From an uncultured Candidatus Saccharibacteria bacterium (GTDB lineage Bacteria; Patescibacteriota; Minisyncoccia; Phycocordibacterales; Zambryskibacteraceae): a DNA stretch of 61,102 nt. Each line of letters opens with the position of its first letter. Position 1 is the stretch's first letter. The notes under the pieces were generated by a model that was not told where the DNA came from, searched no databases, and was given only the letters and a program-made list of their open reading frames with translations. The stretch lies in NCBI GenBank assembly GCA_964582295.1, contig CAZOQP010000002.1, forward strand, positions 148,268-209,369, given 5' to 3'. The position numbers and the translations under genes were made by a program. Positions 26,902 to 61,102 of the stretch are shown here, piece by piece.

Positions 26902-27080
26902 TGGCGGGCGGTGGAGGAATCGGCGACAGCTCACTAATTCGCCCTGTCCATTTTGGCGGGGCTCATAAGTGGCTCCTGCCCGGGCTCGTCCCGCGTAGCG
27001 GGACTCCGCCTTTCGATTCCTCACCATCCTCGCAACGATGAACCGCTCAAATAGCCCCCGGCTATTCTCGCGGGTCATTG
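26902..27080 (-). mobile_element. tRNA-Trp 3'-anchored mini-element (176-bp repeat spacing)
   Basis: 19-bp direct repeat of the tRNA 3' end (26904-26922 vs 27080-27098) plus an inverted T-arm copy at 27012-27025. Confidence 0.55.
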
Positions 27081-27151
27081 CGGGCGGTGGAGGAATCGAA
27101 CCCCCGACAGCGGATTTGGAGGCCGCAGTTATACCATTTAACTAACCGCCC
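27081..27151 (-). tRNA. tRNA-Trp(CCA)
   Basis: GGGCGGT/ACCGCCC, GCGG-C-CTCCAAA-T-CCGC, GGTTCGATTCC. Confidence 0.93.
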
Positions 27152-35445: not shown

Positions 35446-36929
35446 CCAACACTCCACAAAGCCGCCCACCCGTGGTCGTAATCATGGGCCATATAGACCA
35501 TGGCAAATCAACACTTCTTGATTTCATTCGCCGTTCTAATGTTGCGGAAAAGGAAGCTGGTGGCATCACTCAGCACATCTCTGCTTACGAGGCGAGTGTT
35601 CCTCACGAAGGCAGTGAGAGAAAAATAACTTTTATTGATACACCGGGGCATGAAGCCTTCCGCTCAATGCGAGGATCAGGCGGCCAGGCCGCGGATATTG
35701 CAGTGCTTGTGGTTTCAGCTGAAGACGGTGTGAAGCCGCAAACTAAAGAAGCAATAGAGTGGATACAGAAAAACAAACTCCCATTCGTGACGGCCTTCAC
35801 TAAAACCGACAGACCCGAGGCAAATGTGGAAACAGCAAAGCAATCCCTCGCTGAAGCCGGCATTTACGTGGAAGGATATGGCGGAGAGGTGCCTTGGGTC
35901 GGTGTTTCCGGCACTACAGGCGACGGTGTTCCTGAACTTTTGGAAACCATTATTCTTTTGGCTGACATCCACGGAATAAAAGACGAGAACCCTGGTGAGA
36001 TGCTAGGAATTATTTTGGAAAGCCACCGCGACCCTAAAAAAGGCATCACCGCAACGGTCATCATCAAACAAGGAGTCCTTTCTAAAGGCGGCTTCGTGGC
36101 GGCCCCGGGCTCAATTGCTCCGGTAAGGATACTTGAGAACTTTTCCAGTAAAGCAATTGACGAAGCGGGGGCCGGAACACCTGTGAGGATAATCGGCTGG
36201 GAGAGCGCGCCTGAAGTGGGAGGAGAGATGCGAGCTTTTGAAGATAAGGATGCAGCCCGCGCATTTGCGGAAAAAACGCCCGCAGTAAAAGAGGCGGCAT
36301 CTGCAGGAATGCTGGGAGACAAAAAAATGGTTCCGCTCATTGTACGAGCAGACACTGCCGGAAGCCTCAATGCTCTGGTGTACGAGATAGGTAAATTTAC
36401 CCACGAGCGCGTGGCGCCCAAAATAATTTCTGCCAGCATCGGAACTTTGAGCGAAAATGACGTCAAAACAGCACAGACCAATAAGGACTCAATACTGGTA
36501 GCTTTTCATACGGGAATAGACAGCTCTGCAAAATCTTTGGCAGAGCGCCTAGGCACTCCGGTTCTTGCAGACGAAATAATTTACAAGCTCACGGAAAATC
36601 TTTTTGAAGAAATAAAGAAACGTGCACCTATCATTACTGCGGAGAAAATAATAGGCATCGGCCAGATAGTGAGAACATTCAGTGCCGCCAAAGACAAACA
36701 GATAGTGGGAGGCAAAGTGAAGGAAGGAGTGATACGTCTCGGAGCACAGGTGAACATTTTGCGCAGGGGCACTGCAATAGGCCAGGGAAAATTAAAGGAG
36801 CTTCAATATATGAAAGAAAGGATAAGCGAGGCGGCGGAAGGACGAGAATTCGGAGCGCTTATTGAGTCCAAAATGGAGATAGCAGTGGGAGACGAAGTGC
36901 AGGCTTTTGAGCTTGAGCAAATACAATAA
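35442..36929 (+). CDS. infB: Translation initiation factor IF-2 (minimal, no N-domain)
   Basis: RPPVVVIMGHIDHGKSTLLD, GGITQHI, DTPGHEAF. Confidence 0.96.
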   Translation: MTNTPQSRPPVVVIMGHIDHGKSTLLDFIRRSNVAEKEAGGITQHISAYEASVPHEGSERKITFIDTPGHEAFRSMRGSGGQAADIAVLVVSAEDGVKPQTKEAIEWIQKNKLPFVTAFTKTDRPEANVETAKQSLAEAGIYVEGYGGEVPWVGVSGTTGDGVPELLETIILLADIHGIKDENPGEMLGIILESHRDPKKGITATVIIKQGVLSKGGFVAAPGSIAPVRILENFSSKAIDEAGAGTPVRIIGWESAPEVGGEMRAFEDKDAARAFAEKTPAVKEAASAGMLGDKKMVPLIVRADTAGSLNALVYEIGKFTHERVAPKIISASIGTLSENDVKTAQTNKDSILVAFHTGIDSSAKSLAERLGTPVLADEIIYKLTENLFEEIKKRAPIITAEKIIGIGQIVRTFSAAKDKQIVGGKVKEGVIRLGAQVNILRRGTAIGQGKLKELQYMKERISEAAEGREFGALIESKMEIAVGDEVQAFELEQIQ

Positions 36930-36933
36930 AGAG

Positions 36934-37260
36934 ATGCCGATTCCGAAAAAACATAAAAAAGAAAAACTTTCCTCGGTACTTGAACACTTGGCTGCCGAGT
37001 TCATCGCGCGCGAAGCCAACCGCTCTCCCCTTGTGACAGTAACCGGCTCGCGCCTTTCAGATTCTGGAAGGCATATAGATATTCTTATTTCCGTCCTGCC
37101 CGAACATCAGGAAGAAGCTGCGATAGATTTCCTGACACGGCACAAAAAAGATTTTGCGAAATTCGTGGAAGAAAGAGCACGTGTGGGCCGTATGCCCGGC
37201 TTTGATTTCCTAGTTGACACCGGAGAAAAGAATCGACGCAGAGTAGAGGATATAATATAG
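36934..37260 (+). CDS. rbfA: Ribosome-binding factor A
   Basis: Follows infB; LVTVT..LS.D, R.P.F.F..D; start ATG 36934. Confidence 0.8.
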   Translation: MPIPKKHKKEKLSSVLEHLAAEFIAREANRSPLVTVTGSRLSDSGRHIDILISVLPEHQEEAAIDFLTRHKKDFAKFVEERARVGRMPGFDFLVDTGEKNRRRVEDII

Positions 37261-37269
37261 TCTGAATGC

Positions 37270-37344
37270 GGCGTAGTGGTGAAGTGGTAACACAGCGGTC
37301 TGCAAAACCGCGATGCGGGGGTTCGATTCCCCCCTACGCCTCCA
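37270..37344 (+). tRNA. tRNA-Cys(GCA)
   Basis: GGCGTAG/CTACGCC, GCGGT-CTGCAAA-ACCGC, U discriminator, encoded CCA. Confidence 0.95.
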
Positions 37345-37368
37345 GAAAACCCCGCGGGGTTTTCTAAC

Positions 37369-37449
37369 GCCCGGGTGGCGTAATGGCAGCCGCGCTCGAC
37401 TTAAGATCGAGTTCCGAAAGGAGTGTGAGTTCAAGTCTCACCCCGGGCA
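37369..37449 (+). tRNA. tRNA-Leu(TAA)
   Basis: GCCCGGG/CCCGGGC, CTCGA-CTTAAGA-TCGAG; preceded by palindrome GAAAACCCCGCGGGGTTTTC. Confidence 0.95.
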
Positions 37450-37472
37450 CCCCAAATAAAGCGGATACGAAA

Positions 37473-37505
37473 AGCCGCGTGATGTGTTGAACACATCACG
37501 CGGCT
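37473..37505. terminator. Palindrome between the tRNAs and gmk
   Basis: AGCCGCGTGATGTGTT-G-AACACATCACGCGGCT. Confidence 0.65.
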
Positions 37506-37520
37506 ATGGCCCGAAATTTT

Positions 37521-38114
37521 TCATAGGCCACGACTCCACATTGCCGCAAGTACGCGGTTAAGTGCGGATTTACCAGGAGTCCCCTCCTGCAGATTTTGCA
37601 CTAAAACGAAAGGGAGCCGCAAGCTCCGCATCTTCACCGGCGTCCAATCTTCTGCTTCTTTAAGGCGTGCGGCGGCAACCAGAGGATCATCTCCCCTTTT
37701 TATCATGCGCTCCAATTCATGATGCCCGGGATCTTCAATAAAAAAAGAAAGTACTCTCTCCGGGCCGGCGAATTCGTGCAGTTTTGCCACTGCTTCAGGC
37801 ACAAGCGTCATGACAGAAACCGTTTCTCCCTCGAGCGCTTTCTCTACATCCACTCTCCTGGTGGCGTAGAAATAGCCGCTATGGGATATGTTCCAGAGAA
37901 ATGAATGTTCGGACTTGAGAATCTGGAACTGACTAAGGGAAATGTATTCATATTCCCCCTTTACATCCCGCGGACTTTCAGGGCGTGTAGTAACGCTCCG
38001 TCCTTGAAAAATTTTAATGTCCGGTCTTGCTGTGAGAACCTTGCGAGCGATAGTGCTTTTCCCTACCCCGGGCGGTCCGGTAAACGTAACAAACCGCAGA
38101 AGTGCATCATGCAT
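37521..38114 (-). CDS. gmk: Guanylate kinase-like protein
   Basis: GPPGVGKST, SVTTRP, EYEYIS, YFYAT; start ATG 38114. Confidence 0.8.
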   Translation of the reverse strand: MHDALLRFVTFTGPPGVGKSTIARKVLTARPDIKIFQGRSVTTRPESPRDVKGEYEYISLSQFQILKSEHSFLWNISHSGYFYATRRVDVEKALEGETVSVMTLVPEAVAKLHEFAGPERVLSFFIEDPGHHELERMIKRGDDPLVAAARLKEAEDWTPVKMRSLRLPFVLVQNLQEGTPGKSALNRVLAAMWSRGL

Positions 38115-38252
38115 AAGCCCCCTATGGTTTTGAAGATTGCTTTCTCTGCTCCCATTCAAACATGCATAATCATCAAACACAATTAAGCTGTTCTATTTGA
38201 TGGAATAACAAGCTTGAAGCTTACAGATTTAAGCTATAAGCTTTATCAGTCC

Positions 38253-38325
38253 CCGCCCATAACTCAGTTGGTAGAGTAGCCGCCTCTTAAGCGGAATGTC
38301 GTTGGTTCGAATCCAACTGGGCGGA
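38253..38325 (+). tRNA. tRNA-Lys(CTT)
   Basis: CCGCCCA/TGGGCGG, CCGC-CTCTTAA-GCGG, GTTGG-TTCGAAT-CCAAC. Confidence 0.92.
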
Positions 38326-38417
38326 CATGTAGTGATAAGCTCCTGATAAAGACAGATTGGACAAAAGGACAACCTCAAGTAAAGTAACCGCAGAACCTCA
38401 CCCGGAGAAACAGTTCA

Positions 38418-39089
38418 ATGACATCCGACACAGTGAAAGAATCGCCTGCACGGCAGTTCCTGCGTGAGACATTCGAGAAAGTGGTCCTAAGAATGAACGG
38501 GGTAAGTATCCCTCTTCTGGGACGAAACATCTGGATAGAGGAAGGGCCGAAAAGGCATTTTCTTGGCAGTGAGCTAGTCTTCATCCGGACAGAGAAACAT
38601 GCCTGGGCTTTATGTTTTTCCGAAAAATCTGCGGGTAGATATGCCGAGGAGCGGGCTGCTGACATTTCTGCAGTTCTTGTTTTGCCGAAATCTCAGCAGA
38701 AAGGCAAATTGGTCGAAGCTAGAGATACACACGGCATATTCGGAACGTGCTATGCCGACGTTGATTCTCCGATCTTCGATCCCCAATCCATTCTGCAACT
38801 CCTCATGGAAACATTTGAGGGCGGTGAAGATCTTCGGAACTCCATCTTGGCGGGAGACAATCTTGGCCGCATCGGTACACGTGATACTTCACGCTTTGCC
38901 GACTTCATGCATGCACTGGGGCATAAGGCGTTTGAAAACCATCGTTACGATTCCTTCTCTGAATATCCGGAGGAAATGCAGGAGCTATCTATCAGGAATA
39001 TCTGCCGACTTCTTGCAGGAGAGAATATTTCTGCACAAAGTTGGGATGTCGGCGGTAACCTTCGGATAGGACTACCGAAAGGAGTTTGA
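38418..39089 (+). CDS. Hypothetical protein (223 aa)
   Basis: Long ORF between two tRNAs, followed by palindrome GAGGGAGCACGGCCGTGCTCCCTC (39100-39123). Confidence 0.65.
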   Translation: MTSDTVKESPARQFLRETFEKVVLRMNGVSIPLLGRNIWIEEGPKRHFLGSELVFIRTEKHAWALCFSEKSAGRYAEERAADISAVLVLPKSQQKGKLVEARDTHGIFGTCYADVDSPIFDPQSILQLLMETFEGGEDLRNSILAGDNLGRIGTRDTSRFADFMHALGHKAFENHRYDSFSEYPEEMQELSIRNICRLLAGENISAQSWDVGGNLRIGLPKGV

Positions 39090-39150
39090 ATAAGCGCGAG
39101 AGGGAGCACGGCCGTGCTCCCTCGAATTGTTTATGACACAATAGAAAAAC

Positions 39151-39231
39151 GGGCGGGTGGTGAAATGGTATACACGCTAGTTTTAGGAACTGGTCCCGCA
39201 AGGGGTGGAGGTTCAAGTCCTCTCCCGCCCA
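39151..39231 (+). tRNA. tRNA-Leu(TAG)
   Basis: GGGCGGG/CCCGCCC, CTAGT-TTTAGGA-ACTGG, long variable arm. Confidence 0.95.
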
Positions 39232-39391
39232 CAAATTTAACGAAGTGAAATTGTGCAGCGAGAAAGCAAACTGCTTTGCTTTCGTGAGAGGACTTGAAAA
39301 GGTTCTCCTAAATTTTTGAGTCTGCTATTGCGGATGAAAAAATAGGAAACCTGTACTGAAGCTGTAAGATTCAGGATCTCTCCCGCGCACA
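39232..39391 (+). mobile_element. tRNA-Leu 3'-anchored mini-element (158-bp repeat spacing)
   Basis: Inverted T-arm copy GAGAGGACTTGAA (39286-39298) and an 18/22 direct copy of the tRNA 3' end (39370-39391). Confidence 0.55.
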
Positions 39392-39468
39392 CTTGACTTT
39401 TATATGTATAGTATGATATAATAGTGGCAGAGCAGTACCTAACACACTACTCACACGAGGGTACTACA

Positions 39469-40482
39469 TTGTCTCCGTTTCTACTCCTGTCTCTGCTAAG
39501 CATAGTGGTCATTGTGACCCTCTGCTGGCTCATCCCTAACGCATTTGCGAATGAACACAAATTCTGGAATCGCGTCCATGAAAATGAGATTGTGTTCGTT
39601 AAGAAGGAAGGGAAAGTTGTCTTGGGCTTCTGCGGTGTCCCGGGAGTCCGATTCGCCGGAGCTATTCCCGGACACAGGCAGCCAAACAAACTGCTGAAAG
39701 GAGCGGATCCGTGCGGGTACTACGCGCTCGTCCCTGATTCCACACATCAAGGAGATCAGGGACTACACTGGATCGGAATTTTTCCAAGGTACCAGGTACA
39801 CAGTCATGTTTTTGCCTGGTCAAAGTTCGCTCAGGAAAAGGACAAGCCGGTTGAAGTAGTTGTCGCTCGGCAGGAAGAAGTTTTCTCGATGTACCATCGC
39901 TCTACATACGCGATTGTCGTCGAAGGCCGCACCAACGACAACATGCCCGGTCAGTCTATCCTCCAAGTGGAGATCGAGACCATTAGACCGTACGTCGCCC
40001 TCTTCGTAATACGTAAGTGGCTTGATGTGACAAAAATGTACATTGAGTCACGGGTCAACAAAGTCATCGGCAGGATAAACTTCGATGCAATCACGAGTGC
40101 ACGATGGAAGAGGACGTACGAACAAGAGCTCGTAAGCTCCATTCTCGCTCTCAATGACGACATCGGTTTTGACCCGAACAACGTGCGAACACTGATTGAT
40201 GAGGTCGGTGTGAGAATCCGCAACGTATCTTGGAGTCAGTTCGTTCCGACTCCGGGCCAGAAACTGGAGGAGATTTATCTTCTCGATGCCCGCGGGACTG
40301 CGGAGGCGAAAAACCTCAAGCGGCTCGTCAAGAGCGGTGGAGGAACACCTGAACAGGTGCTCGACTACCTGAAAAACAGGGAGTTGGCCGACGCACTCAA
40401 GAATACCAAAGCAAGTACCATTGTCGTCGGGAGTTCCGGCATCGGTGTAAATGTCGGCGGTGGAGGCAGCAAGAAGCCATAA
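39469..40482 (+). CDS. SPFH/Band-7-like membrane protein
   Basis: N-terminal TM, beta-rich insert, SPFH-like core (GVRIRNVSW), A..EA coiled tail; TTG start with GAGGG. Confidence 0.6.
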   Translation: MSPFLLLSLLSIVVIVTLCWLIPNAFANEHKFWNRVHENEIVFVKKEGKVVLGFCGVPGVRFAGAIPGHRQPNKLLKGADPCGYYALVPDSTHQGDQGLHWIGIFPRYQVHSHVFAWSKFAQEKDKPVEVVVARQEEVFSMYHRSTYAIVVEGRTNDNMPGQSILQVEIETIRPYVALFVIRKWLDVTKMYIESRVNKVIGRINFDAITSARWKRTYEQELVSSILALNDDIGFDPNNVRTLIDEVGVRIRNVSWSQFVPTPGQKLEEIYLLDARGTAEAKNLKRLVKSGGGTPEQVLDYLKNRELADALKNTKASTIVVGSSGIGVNVGGGGSKKP

Positions 40483-40646
40483 ATGAGCCTTTGTGGGCCA
40501 AGGCCCAGGATACTTCAAAGTATCCTGGGCCTTTTCATTTTTATGCCTATTTCTAAGCCCTATATAATAAACTTGACAAGAATGTTTTATATGCTATACT
40601 GTAGGGAGAGCCCGAGAAATCAATCATCTTCGCCTGGAGGGGCATC

Positions 40647-41348
40647 ATGTTCTGGATCTTTGAGATACTCTGGATTATCGCTTGCGGAGGGATTGCGATC
40701 TACCTCTTCGCGAACAGAGGAGAACAGTGGTACATCGACTACGTGGGGCCACGGCTTCATGTTCTCATCGGTATCGCGGTTGCCGGTTTCGTCCTCGGTG
40801 CTACTTTTATTATCATGGAAAATTTCTTTCCGGATAATATGAAATGGTTCCGTGGATATGGCCCCAACGACTATGGGCATATGCATACATTCGTAACGTG
40901 CATACTCATCGTTGGTGCTCTGCTCGCAACGCGAAATAACGTTGCCCGCAGTGTCGGCACGGTACTCTTCTCTGTCGCTTCCCTTTCACTTGCTATCAGC
41001 ATGAGTGATGCGTGGAGGCGGTATCCGAAGACCCCGAAAGAAACTCGGGCGGTGACAACGACTGGTGGAGCATTGGTGTCCAGACAGGAATTAAGACAGG
41101 ACACCATCACACTTGTTGCAGGCATGGAAACAACGGTGCCGATACCGGTGTGTCGCGAATCACGGGCAACGTACGTCGTCACCGACACTGTGGCGATCCG
41201 CGTCAACGGAAGAGCGGACACGGTATACGTCGCTCCCGGCGAACTTCCAGACCTTGGAAGGTCAGTATCGTCGTTGAGTGTCACCTCCAGGACGAACGGA
41301 ATGGTGGCGCTCACGTCATGGAAGTCAAATCATCCGGTATGCCGTTAG
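40647..41348 (+). CDS. Multi-TM membrane protein with C-terminal extracellular beta domain
   Basis: 4 hydrophobic segments; promoter TTGACA-N16-TATACT and SD GGAGGGG. Confidence 0.7.
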   Translation: MFWIFEILWIIACGGIAIYLFANRGEQWYIDYVGPRLHVLIGIAVAGFVLGATFIIMENFFPDNMKWFRGYGPNDYGHMHTFVTCILIVGALLATRNNVARSVGTVLFSVASLSLAISMSDAWRRYPKTPKETRAVTTTGGALVSRQELRQDTITLVAGMETTVPIPVCRESRATYVVTDTVAIRVNGRADTVYVAPGELPDLGRSVSSLSVTSRTNGMVALTSWKSNHPVCR

Positions 41349-41413
41349 AGAAAAGCAACAGCCGACACATTACAATGTGTCGGCTGTTTTTCTTTGGTTG
41401 GAATTTTATTTAC

Positions 41414-41677
41414 CTAGCGACCAAAGAGGAATGTGGGCAGGGGTAAACCAAAAGTTCCAAGTACTATCCTGATGATGCCGAATACCGAGAACATAATAAG
41501 AAGCCCTACAAGCCCCCACACTATGTTCCTCTGTCCTTCCTTACGTTTCTCCGCATCTGCAGGGTTTCTCATGAAGTTAAAGAGTCCCCAGAGGAACAAG
41601 AGAACCGCCACGGCAAAGCCGAATGTGATAAGAGGATTAAGGATAATCCCGTTTACCTTGTGGATGAATTCGGTCAC
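41414..41677 (-). CDS. TrbC/VirB2-like pilin (6 of 6)
   Basis: Two TM helices around a basic loop; GQRNIVWGLVGLLIMFSVFGII. Confidence 0.8.
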   Translation of the reverse strand: MTEFIHKVNGIILNPLITFGFAVAVLLFLWGLFNFMRNPADAEKRKEGQRNIVWGLVGLLIMFSVFGIIRIVLGTFGLPLPTFLFGR

Positions 41678-41698: not shown

Positions 41699-42055
41699 TT
41701 AATTGACCTGATTGACTCTCGGAACGTTAGGCAAGCCCTCTCCTTGTCTGATGCCCAAAGCGTTTCCCAGAAATGCCACTAATCCCCAAACAGAAACCAT
41801 CACGAAGAGGGCGACGATGCCCCAGATCATGGTGTCCTTTCCTTTCTTTTTTGCCTCCTCATCTCCAGCGGCAAGCACGAACCTTGCTAAACCATAGAAG
41901 AAGAACAGCAATGCCAGAGCCACTACTATAGGTAGGGATGTGTTGATAATTGAACCTATTCTCACTACAAATGTCTCAAGGTTACCCAACGGCTGTTGAG
42001 CAAGAGCGAGCATAGGCAATGCGAATGTGCTAGATGCGGCGATAAATCGTTTCAT
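41699..42055 (-). CDS. TrbC/VirB2-like pilin (5 of 6)
   Basis: Signal peptide, GKDTMIWGIVALFVMVSVWGLV; start ATG 42055. Confidence 0.8.
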   Translation of the reverse strand: MKRFIAASSTFALPMLALAQQPLGNLETFVVRIGSIINTSLPIVVALALLFFFYGLARFVLAAGDEEAKKKGKDTMIWGIVALFVMVSVWGLVAFLGNALGIRQGEGLPNVPRVNQVN

Positions 42056-42145
42056 ATTCTTAATATTATTCTTAAAACCCACTTATTTAGGTTTATAGCA
42101 TTATACCGCACATAGACAGCCCTAAGGGCTTCGTGGGGATATCTA

Positions 42146-42562
42146 TTAAAGAGCTCCGCCGAATATATCGTGCTGAATGAAAGCAACCAGTCCCCACACA
42201 GAAACCATTACAAAAAGGGCGATAATACCCCAAAGCATTGTTTTCCTTCCCTCTTCTATGGCTTTTGTGTCGCCTTGAGCGCGCACAACTTTAAATACGC
42301 CCCATAGAAATACCAGGAGGGCGGCTGAAACAGTGATGGGAATGAGGCGGTTAAAGAACTGACCGACACAAATTATTATCTCCTGGATATTATCATTGGA
42401 ACACGAGAGAGACGTCTGCGAGGTCTGCGGACAACCAACAGGAAATGGGCCGCTACCGCCAGTGCGGCAACGAGGGTCAATATTTATGCCCTGGGCAGAA
42501 GAAAAAAGAGGAAGAACGACAAAGACGAGAAGTAAAACTGATATGAACTTTTTTATTTTCAT
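42146..42562 (-). CDS. TrbC/VirB2-like pilin (4 of 6)
   Basis: GRKTMLWGIIALFVMVSVWGLV; start ATG 42562 (ATGA overlap). Confidence 0.8.
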   Translation of the reverse strand: MKIKKFISVLLLVFVVLPLFSSAQGINIDPRCRTGGSGPFPVGCPQTSQTSLSCSNDNIQEIIICVGQFFNRLIPITVSAALLVFLWGVFKVVRAQGDTKAIEEGRKTMLWGIIALFVMVSVWGLVAFIQHDIFGGAL

Positions 42563-42897
42563 TGAGGCAACTGGGGCAGTCCTATTCTTCCTCCGAAGAC
42601 ACTTACATGGAGCAGATTCACGATACCGAAGAAAGATATCATCACAAAAAGGATAATGATGCCCCATATCATAAGTTGCTTCCCTTCATCTTCTGCCTTT
42701 TCGCTTCCCGCCTTTTTTATGAAAATAAGAAGACCTTTGAAAAAGAACCACAAAGAAACCACAATGATGACGGGTATCAAAAGGTTTATGATGTTTATGA
42801 AAAGTGCAAGAAATCCTTTGAAATCAGTGGGAGCGTCCCCTACTTGATATATCGCAGGAAGCGCAGGCAAAAGTTTGGTTTTAAGTCTTGAACGCAT
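42559..42897 (-). CDS. TrbC/VirB2-like pilin (3 of 6)
   Basis: GKQLMIWGIIILFVMISFFGIV. Confidence 0.75.
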   Translation of the reverse strand: MRSRLKTKLLPALPAIYQVGDAPTDFKGFLALFINIINLLIPVIIVVSLWFFFKGLLIFIKKAGSEKAEDEGKQLMIWGIIILFVMISFFGIVNLLHVSVFGGRIGLPQLPQ

Positions 42898-56394: not shown

Positions 56395-56486
56395 TCACTC
56401 AGATAACACCCTTTTTCAAACAGTTGCCGCTTCGGTGTTTACGAAATCACCTCCCGCGTGTGTGAAAAAGGGTGTTATCTTCGCTC
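56395..56486 (-). repeat. GAGCGA-flanked palindromic element 4
   Basis: 18-bp arms AGATAACACCCTTTTTCA/TGAAAAAGGGTGTTATCT; minus-strand flanks GAGCGA and GAGTGA. Confidence 0.75.
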
Positions 56487-56509
56487 CTTAAGTATTAGAA
56501 CTTAACTTA

Positions 56510-56687
56510 AAGCGAGCAGTACGGAGTTTTTCAAACTAGAGTTAATTTAGAGCGAGGGGTGATGACGAAAAGAGGCTGTGCAGCGCGACGGCGCGAGGGT
56601 GAGCAAAAAATCAGCAGATTTTTATGCGTACTCTTTTCGTCATCACCCCGAGCGAATGCTGTTTGAAAAACTCCGTACTGCGAGCGA
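56510..56687 (+). repeat. GAGCGA-flanked palindromic element 5 (outer)
   Basis: AAGCGA-GCAGTACGGAGTTTTTCAAAC...GTTTGAAAAACTCCGTACTGC-GAGCGA, perfect 21-bp arms. Confidence 0.8.
56550..56655 (+). repeat. GAGCGA-flanked palindromic element 6 (nested in element 5)
   Basis: Same 19-bp arms and GCAGATTTTTATGCGTA core as 27350-27473. Confidence 0.85.
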
Positions 56688-60978: not shown

Positions 60979-61050
60979 GGCCCTATCGTCTATCGGTTAG
61001 GACACGAGCTTTTCAAGCTCGGAAGCAGGGTTCGACTCCCTGTAGGGTCA
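60979..61050 (+). tRNA. tRNA-Glu(TTC)
   Basis: GGCCCTA/TAGGGTC, CGAGC-TTTTCAA-GCTCG. Confidence 0.95.
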
Positions 61051-61102
61051 CAAAACGCGAGTTCAAGAAAAGCGCACTGCTGCGCTTTTCTGCGTTTTGT
61101 GA
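61048..61102 (+). mobile_element. Start of a third tRNA 3'-anchored element (truncated by the window)
   Basis: TCACAAAACGC/GCGTTTTGTGA arms around GAAAAGCGCA-CTGC-TGCGCTTTTC; same CTGC-loop hairpin as after tRNA-Leu(TAG). Confidence 0.45.

Follow-up and report, generated by a model that had tools for sequence, protein, structure and literature searches.

The tRNA-Leu(tag) gene in this 61,102-nt stretch of DNA (the whole stretch analyzed, hereafter the window) is followed by an inverted and a direct copy of its own 3′ end, which raises the question of whether these copies are a passive scar or parts of a structure under selection. The initial annotation had reported a perfect 13-nt inverted arm, an adjacent hairpin, a long hairpin and an 18/22 direct copy, all of which are present (Table 1), and, because the inverted arm is perfect while the direct copy has decayed, inferred selection on the fold-back as an RNA or ssDNA structure. 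Our analysis supports a selected fold, but the whole unit turned out to belong to a multi-copy element family rather than being a peculiarity of this pre-tRNA. The genome that contains the window (G000) comprises 568 kb in 7 contigs and is ~99% complete, and its IF-2 relatives are Patescibacteria of the Parcubacteria/Paceibacterota type.

Table 1. Positions of the tRNA-Leu(tag) gene, the parts of the element behind it, and related features of the window.
Feature	Position	Strand	Evidence or remark
tRNA-Leu(TAG), intact; gene to which the element is attached	39151..39232	+	ARAGORN; Rfam RF00005, 54.8 bits
DR1: T-loop, T-stem 3′ strand, acceptor 3′ strand, discriminator and CA of the tRNA	39212..39233	+	
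Spacer AATTTAACGAAGTGAAAT	39234..39251	+	direct reading, fold, relatives
Left arm, acceptor part (P0 5′ strand) TGTGCAGCG	39252..39260	+	MFE fold, family alignment
P1 hairpin GAAAGCAAA-CTGC-TTTGCTTTC, 9 bp with 4-nt loop	39262..39283	+	repeat search, covariation
Inverted arm, T part (P2 5′ strand) GAGAGGACTTGAA	39286..39298	+	perfect reverse complement of tRNA positions 54–66
P3 long hairpin, base AGGTT/AACCT, strongly covarying	39300..39352	+	fold, alignment
GTAC linker (conserved) and P4 hairpin TGAAGC-TGTAA-GATTCA	39353..39373	+	family alignment
DR2: direct copy of the tRNA 3′ end (18/22), P2 and P0 3′ strands	39370..39391	+	
Promoter-like site TTGACT-18-TATAAT with extended TG	39393..39422	+	11/12 consensus positions
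Second tRNA-linked element, behind tRNA-Trp (27080–27151)	26902..27079	-	type-B core GGCGGAG

The folded element behind tRNA-Leu(tag) measures ~140 nt (39252–39391) and comprises five helices, P0 to P4. P0 is an acceptor-like stem, P1 and P3 are a short-looped and a long hairpin, respectively, and P4 is a short hairpin with the loop CTGTAAG, in which C-TGTAA-G is nearly invariant across the family. Both arms copy DR1. The left arm repeats, in inverted form, the acceptor 3′ strand and the trailing CA, and its partner lies at 39383–39391; the T part of the inverted arm forms a perfect 13-nt inverted repeat with TTCAAGTCCTCTC (39212–39224), which reaches 16 nt at 94% identity (39212–27 versus 39283–98). 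P1 is placed exactly at the boundary between the acceptor and T-stem parts of the inverted arm and is both conserved and covarying. The direct copy is identical to the tRNA end at 20 of 25 positions (39367–39391 versus 39209–39233), or 18 of 22 when counted over 39370–39391, and its start shares bases with the 3′ strand of P4. Described at first as a mere decayed repeat, it is in fact the pairing partner of the inverted arm, the two being the strands of P2, the element’s closing stem; of three substitutions in its T part, two retain pairing as G-U. Its acceptor part, CCCGCGC, is that of tRNA-Leu(gag) in the same genome. The acceptor parts CCCGCGC (direct) and TGTGC-A-GCG (left) match each other, and also fit tRNA-Leu(gag), by one pair more than they match tRNA-Leu(tag), a difference that stems either from a single compensatory change or from an ancestral copy at a Leu(gag) site. 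In the spacer, the flanks CACAAATTT and AAATTGTG lengthen the pairing of DR1 with the left arm, and the ACGAAGTGA motif reappears behind tRNA ends and direct copies in relatives.

Given ~1e5 position pairs in a 450-nt region, we estimate that ~1e-3 perfect 13-mer inverted repeats would be expected by chance, with a similar value for the 18/22 direct match; the identical layout in hundreds of genomes settles that the arms are not accidental. The 137-nt insert behind the tRNA holds no credible gene. A decayed convergent duplicate of the whole tRNA was considered and rejected, as the bases that follow the inverted arm (AAGGTTCTCC...) bear no relation to the tRNA body in reverse complement. We likewise dismissed a tmRNA and a second tRNA of unusual or intron-bearing form, since ARAGORN returned nothing on either strand and neither a D-arm nor an anticodon arm can be drawn.

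To assess the fold, we aligned 13 copies of the element and tested P1, P2, the base of P3 and P4 against shuffled (n = 500) and slid controls. In this alignment, 88% of the cells are paired and 21 of the 29 pairs have changed on both sides, values reached by none of the 500 shuffles, whereas the slid controls were only 33–53% paired. Changes on both sides affect seven of the nine pairs of P1 (helix 1) and all five pairs at the base of P3 (helix 4), the latter being 97% paired. The proposal that the fold is selected, and not a passive scar, is therefore upheld. On the tRNA-sense strand, G-U/U-G cells number 45 and A-C/C-A cells 11, which identifies this strand as the one that folds; strand-biased C-to-T mutation could be a partial source of the G-U excess. 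Folded alone, the window copy forms P0, P1, P2 and P3 (−51.2 kcal/mol, z = −5.4), and in the MFE structure of the full precursor the inverted arm pairs with the tRNA’s own T-arm and acceptor strand (−91 kcal/mol, z = −5.1). P0 and P2 together make a duplex copy of tRNA positions ~54–76, built from the tRNA-sense strand and closed by the core. This duplex does not present a tRNA-like free end: the left arm pairs the discriminator and the trailing bases, and the T-loop sequence is buried in P2/P4. Neither ARAGORN nor Rfam found a tRNA-like match at 39233–39391.

A DNA search in 40 relatives showed that 39260–39391 is a conserved unit that occurs behind other tRNAs, independently of tRNA-Leu(tag). 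Its order is constant: a spacer, often with a terminator-like palindrome, is followed by the inverted tRNA copy, the core (P3, GTAC, P4) and the direct copy. The inverted copy extends from the T-loop to ~2 nt past the discriminator and is usually split by P1 at the T-stem/acceptor junction. From the 13 aligned copies we built a covariance model, R1 (136 positions, 28 base pairs), which matches 224 of 301 genomes of the same order with E-values down to 1e-31 and often finds at least 11 copies per genome. The window copy, with an intact core, scores 122.6 bits and is the second best of all matches. Applied to 120 genomes from the rest of the phylum, R1 produced only one weak partial match. A search against Rfam 15 gave nothing at E ≤ 1 over 36500–41500, and across the whole window tRNAs alone reached the gathering score; a covarying structure of ~135 nt is thus this abundant and yet absent from Rfam 15. 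The literature that we searched contains no description of the element, the nearest entries being tRNA gene fragments derived from integrating elements and unrelated bacterial tRNA mimics. The window copy is therefore apparently one member of a large, undescribed family in ultra-small bacteria of the Parcubacteria type.

Besides the core found at tRNA-Leu(tag), here called type A, a type-B core beginning with GGCGGAG and following the same arm logic lies behind tRNA-Trp in the window, tRNA-Leu(tag) in G005 and tRNA-Lys in G001. The tRNA-Trp element has the inverted arm GAGGAATCGAA and a direct copy that is perfect over 19 nt, with CCA behind it. At this locus, the functional gene end is followed by CAA, whereas the distal direct copy has CCA; the same pattern occurs at tRNA-Ile(gat) on contig C4, and both directions occur in relatives. 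Further arm-bearing structures were found in the window’s genome behind tRNA-Ser(gct), tRNA-Arg(ccg) and tRNA-Ile(gat). A hammerhead-like core suspected in the tRNA-Ser element (CGATGAGG...GAAAC) was dropped because the CUGAUGA box is absent.

Across 30 loci, nearly all copies follow, at a distance of 7–51 nt, either another copy or a co-oriented tRNA, whatever its identity. In one closed genome (G071), 17 of 18 copies stand behind 14 tRNA genes and the tmRNA gene, with arms matched to the respective neighbor. We compared both arms with the adjoining tRNA over 39 copies. In the T part (tRNA positions 57–65), the inverted arm is perfect in 24 of the 39 and the direct copy in 23; in the acceptor part (positions 66–73), the corresponding counts are 9 and 24. 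Both arms thus follow the tRNA, and the inverted one does not as a rule outlast the direct one. That the inverted copy is kept while the direct copy decays, as the initial annotation had supposed, is a trait of the window copy and not of the family: the direct copy is perfect in most relatives, including a perfect 20-mer at the tRNA-Leu(tag) site of G005, a genome of the same genus. The accompanying idea, that the inverted arm follows its tRNA, does hold, homologous arms reading GAGGAATCGAA behind tRNA-Trp, CGAGAATCGCA behind tRNA-Cys and ACTCGAA where the T-loop is TTCGAG. The inverted arm always retains GAA, the complement of T54–C56, and the direct copy often begins only at position 55–57. 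At their other end, the arms include bases past the mature tRNA (ACA, ACC, ATA, encoded CCA, or up to ~10 nt of trailer), and the left arm can carry TGG facing an encoded CCA. Such copying of post-mature bases points to a DNA-level process and not to selection for a tRNA-like free 3′ end.

Genomes of the same genus differ in occupancy. The tRNA-Leu(tag) site carries a type-A copy in the window’s genome, is empty or decayed in G001 and G003, and in G005 holds a hybrid, with P1 and the inverted arm as in the window and a core of type B. Orthologous copies can also be near-identical between species of one genus (L039 versus L043). Tandem identical units of ~182 nt each occur, and contigs often end in copies. 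Some copies are associated with cargo. At tRNA-Arg(ccg) of the window’s genome (C1:153300–154055), a terminator palindrome and an inverted acceptor copy are followed by a promoter, an ORF for a ~100-aa membrane protein and a terminator; a 15-nt direct copy of the tRNA end lies 621 nt downstream, past the ORF and terminator, so that the locus looks like a one-gene cassette. In G070, a 277-aa ORF separates tRNA-Ser from a type-A copy. The closed genome also reveals a modular composition: tRNA-Gly and tRNA-Pro are followed by the identical 60-nt P3 module but by different arms, P1 and P4, the two tRNA-Lys sites have the left arm and P1 in common and differ in P3 and P4, and four copies contain an extra small hairpin nested within P3. 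Modules thus spread or convert within a genome, whereas each tRNA keeps its own local arms. Of the 39 copies, 16 are preceded and 10 are followed by a terminator-like hairpin with a T-run; the window copy has neither. In the remaining 23 copies, which lack a spacer terminator and include that of the window, co-transcription with the tRNA is possible.

We looked for an associated enzyme by comparing 21 element-rich with 19 element-free genomes. Exactly one tyrosine recombinase gene, of ~320 aa, is present in every genome of either group and is hence not associated with the element; in the window’s genome, the sole PF00589 gene lies at C1:113847–114353, far from the element, and none lies inside it. 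Reverse transcriptases (9/21 versus 7/19) and the Y1 HUH transposase (PF01797; 15/21 versus 9/19) show no association either, the latter being absent from the closed genome with its 18 copies. Three word scans of viral contigs gave 71 loci, none of which contains a model match, and no free, circular or viral form was seen. An apparent orphan copy in G298 was traced to a tRNA-Asn 8.1 kb upstream, from which it is separated by an 8-kb island (L072, C1:86000–94200) encoding a large serine recombinase, a type III restriction helicase, a DNA methylase and two unknown ORFs. The island sits exactly at the CCA end of tRNA-Asn, has a short GAGCCA repeat at both junctions and left both the tRNA and its element intact. 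We considered it as the element’s mobilizer or autonomous partner and rejected this role, as it is an independent insertion with its own GAGCCA junctions. The window’s genome encodes two Y1 (HUH, RAYT-like) proteins of ~220 aa (C5:18391–18675 and C1:64344–64571), which could be related to its many hairpin repeats; the window itself contains nested perfect palindromes at 56395–56687.

The direct copy of the element spans the T-loop to the tRNA 3′ end, reportedly the classic identity block of T-loop-type integration sites. Direct copies of tRNA 3′ ends that start in the T-loop are what integrating elements leave behind (PMC9897764). The family thus resembles tRNA/tmRNA-targeting integrative elements and their CIME-type or cargo-only derivatives in its insertion at the 3′ end, its direct copy from T-loop to gene end, the intact tRNA, and the existence of arrays and cargo-bearing versions. 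It differs from them in that the element neither contains nor adjoins an integrase and the genome has no additional one, in its size of ~140–180 nt with a covarying folded core, in the added inverted copy of the target, and in that near-identical cores carry arms for many tRNAs. As in integron attC sites, an imperfect palindrome is conserved in structure over sequence and appears to be active as one folded strand, and the element closes the distal end of cargo (G070) and forms arrays. Unlike integrons, however, the family targets any tRNA or tmRNA end instead of a single attI and comes with no intI gene; by inspection, the window copy has no GTTRRRY/RYYYAAC core boxes at the stem base, and the arms are 20–22 nt target copies.

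The folded attP(+) of CTX phage and IMEX offer a further parallel, in that inverted copies pair within one strand to mimic the duplex target, no recombinase is encoded, and the integrated form consists of target copy, spacer, inverted copy, body and target copy; the family departs from it in using tRNA/tmRNA 3′ ends rather than dif and in having no phage genome attached. The 178-bp tyrT-rtT repeats of E. coli (Rfam RtT, RF00391) are tandem, lie downstream of a tRNA and each end in a copy of the tRNA 3′ end, yet they form one enterobacterial locus, lack an inverted arm and have not spread over many tRNAs; no RtT match was found in the Rfam search of the window. With REP/REPIN sequences and MITEs, the family shares its small size, the lack of genes, multiple copies, inverted termini and nested hairpin modules (in G071 and at the palindromes of the window). 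Its termini, in contrast, are not fixed and equal the neighboring tRNA end, there is no association with Y1/RAYT proteins, and it stands strictly behind tRNA/tmRNA genes in one orientation.

How should the element be understood? We see about an even chance that 39233–39391 is an ageing copy of a class of non-autonomous, site-specific, gene-free insertion cassettes for tRNA and tmRNA 3′ ends, in which the fold is the working and selected part and the enzyme acts in trans. The fold would most likely serve as a recombination substrate in the single-stranded state, like attC or the folded attP of CTX, and insertion in or beside the T-loop would rebuild the tRNA from the element’s copy and push the old end downstream. 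As the element itself has no coding capacity, the enzyme has to be provided in trans; these genomes contain just one tyrosine recombinase, an Xer-like gene, and that this host enzyme acts on the element is our conjecture. Against such cassettes, an ordinary integrase explains neither the arms matched to 14 tRNAs on near-identical cores nor the inverted copy, no linked recombinase was found, and the 23 terminator-less copies may have an RNA-level role. A further reading is a mobile unit that has no protein gene and in which the folded core (P1, P3, P4) is the sole heritable part, its ends being re-made from each new target upon insertion. As single-stranded DNA or RNA, this core would dock on the T-arm, a universal feature of tRNA and tmRNA genes, after which a housekeeping enzyme would copy the target 3′ end in both orientations. 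We regard such a unit as unlikely; in its favor, identical 60-nt modules carry different target-matched arms in the closed genome and no dedicated enzyme was found. Closest to the idea of the initial annotation is a cis-acting RNA device, co-transcribed with the tRNA, whose inverted arm would capture either the 3′ half of the tRNA (DR1) or DR2 while the conserved three-way junctions (P1; P3/GTAC/P4) bind a factor and choose the pairing; alternatively, P0, P2 and P1 could form a mimic of the tRNA top half that is processed by tRNA enzymes. This we hold to be somewhat unlikely. The covariation and G-U excess on the tRNA-sense strand and the terminator-less spacers, including that of the window copy, are consistent with an RNA role, as are the two partners of the inverted arm (the tRNA in the precursor MFE structure, DR2 in the element alone), the constant GAA of the inverted arm when the direct copy often starts at 55–57, and the location of P1 where the tRNA body would branch off the acceptor/T stack. 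It is harder to reconcile with the terminator-like hairpin and T-run that separate 16 of the 39 copies from their tRNA and with arms that copy past the mature end, the left arm pairing the discriminator, trailing bases and encoded CCA, which leaves no free NCCA tail. Moreover, tandem arrays, placement behind cargo, gain and loss in the genus and module swapping look like mobile DNA, and no tRNA-like or other Rfam family matches the element.

Two further readings were weighed. The element could be long-resident, vertically inherited structured DNA, with arms matched by co-evolution or short-tract conversion and cores homogenized by conversion, and could benefit the host, perhaps by providing a spare 3′ end or a decoy that protects single-copy tRNAs from integrating elements. 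Near-identical orthologs between species argue for this, the module mosaic of the closed genome agrees equally well with conversion and with transposition, the element has no associated mobility enzyme, and the serine-recombinase island in G298 spared both tRNA-Asn and its element. Nevertheless, occupancy varies in the genus, the core type differs at one and the same site, recent copying is suggested by the contig breaks and by identical units arranged in tandem, and the type-A core is restricted to one order although its targets are universal. The arms, moreover, measure only 20–22 nt, which is short for RecA-type conversion. On balance, we consider long residence quite improbable. Passive scars, that is, attL/attR remnants and terminators of departed integrase-driven prophages or islands, would leave direct copies starting in the T-loop as expected (PMC9897764), and real islands do use such sites, as in G298. 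This reading is nonetheless highly improbable and effectively excluded, as it is already contradicted by the heavy covariation, by the R1 matches in 224 of 301 genomes of the order (E down to 1e-31) and by the same core behind 14 tRNAs and the tmRNA in one genome; nor would scars be expected to contain an inverted copy split by a conserved hairpin, and no integrase exists beyond the single Xer-like gene.

The hosts have genomes of 0.5–1 Mb with mostly single-copy tRNA genes, up to a third of which carry the element, and this holds for the greater part of a large order. Should the family be a cassette system, it would be the tRNA-based equivalent of integrons in CPR bacteria and would let small accessory genes reach reduced genomes without an element-encoded enzyme. 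If the arms are truly templated by the target, this would be a new insertion chemistry of biotechnological interest, unlike transposases, integrases and known RNA-guided systems; if the element acts as RNA, it would add a per-gene control layer to tRNA maturation. How arms matched to many tRNAs came to sit on near-identical cores is the most interesting question. In practical terms, the repeats break assemblies and cause tRNA-fragment mis-annotations.

The promoter-like site noted earlier behind the direct copy is present, starts at 39393 and is a flanking feature for the downstream ORF, not part of the element. This ORF (39424–40482, 352 aa) encodes a membrane protein; its listed start, a GTG, is no more than 2 nt away from the −10 box, and a TTG near 39470 that follows GAGGG is the more probable start. 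The SPFH label previously given to it was not confirmed, as no Pfam match was obtained even at E ≤ 10 and the best PDB sequence match, to a fragment of a stomatin homolog, is non-significant (E = 0.62). A word search of 5.8 billion proteins returned only the protein itself, the syntenic gene in G005 is 26% identical, and no homolog was found in the 1.5-kb flanks of the site in G001 and G003. The lack of relatives together with the low identity in G005 marks it as a very fast-evolving surface or membrane gene. Further downstream, two adjacent genes with T4SS_pilin domains (PF18895) occupy 41699–42667 on the minus strand. Upstream, a 223-aa ORF without a Pfam match (38418–39089), which has its own terminator (39100–39123), lies between tRNA-Lys(ctt) and tRNA-Leu(tag); it looks like an insertion, since these two tRNAs are only 10 nt apart in G005.

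The end of the window, which is also the end of contig C2, falls inside the spacer of an element behind tRNA-Glu(ttc) (60979–61102), where it overlaps with a paralog of the unit on contig C5. Its final 56 nt are found again at C5:1241–1296 (within C5:1225–1390 of the same genome), after a decayed Glu-like 3′ end and before a type-B core; the assembly probably broke on this repeat.
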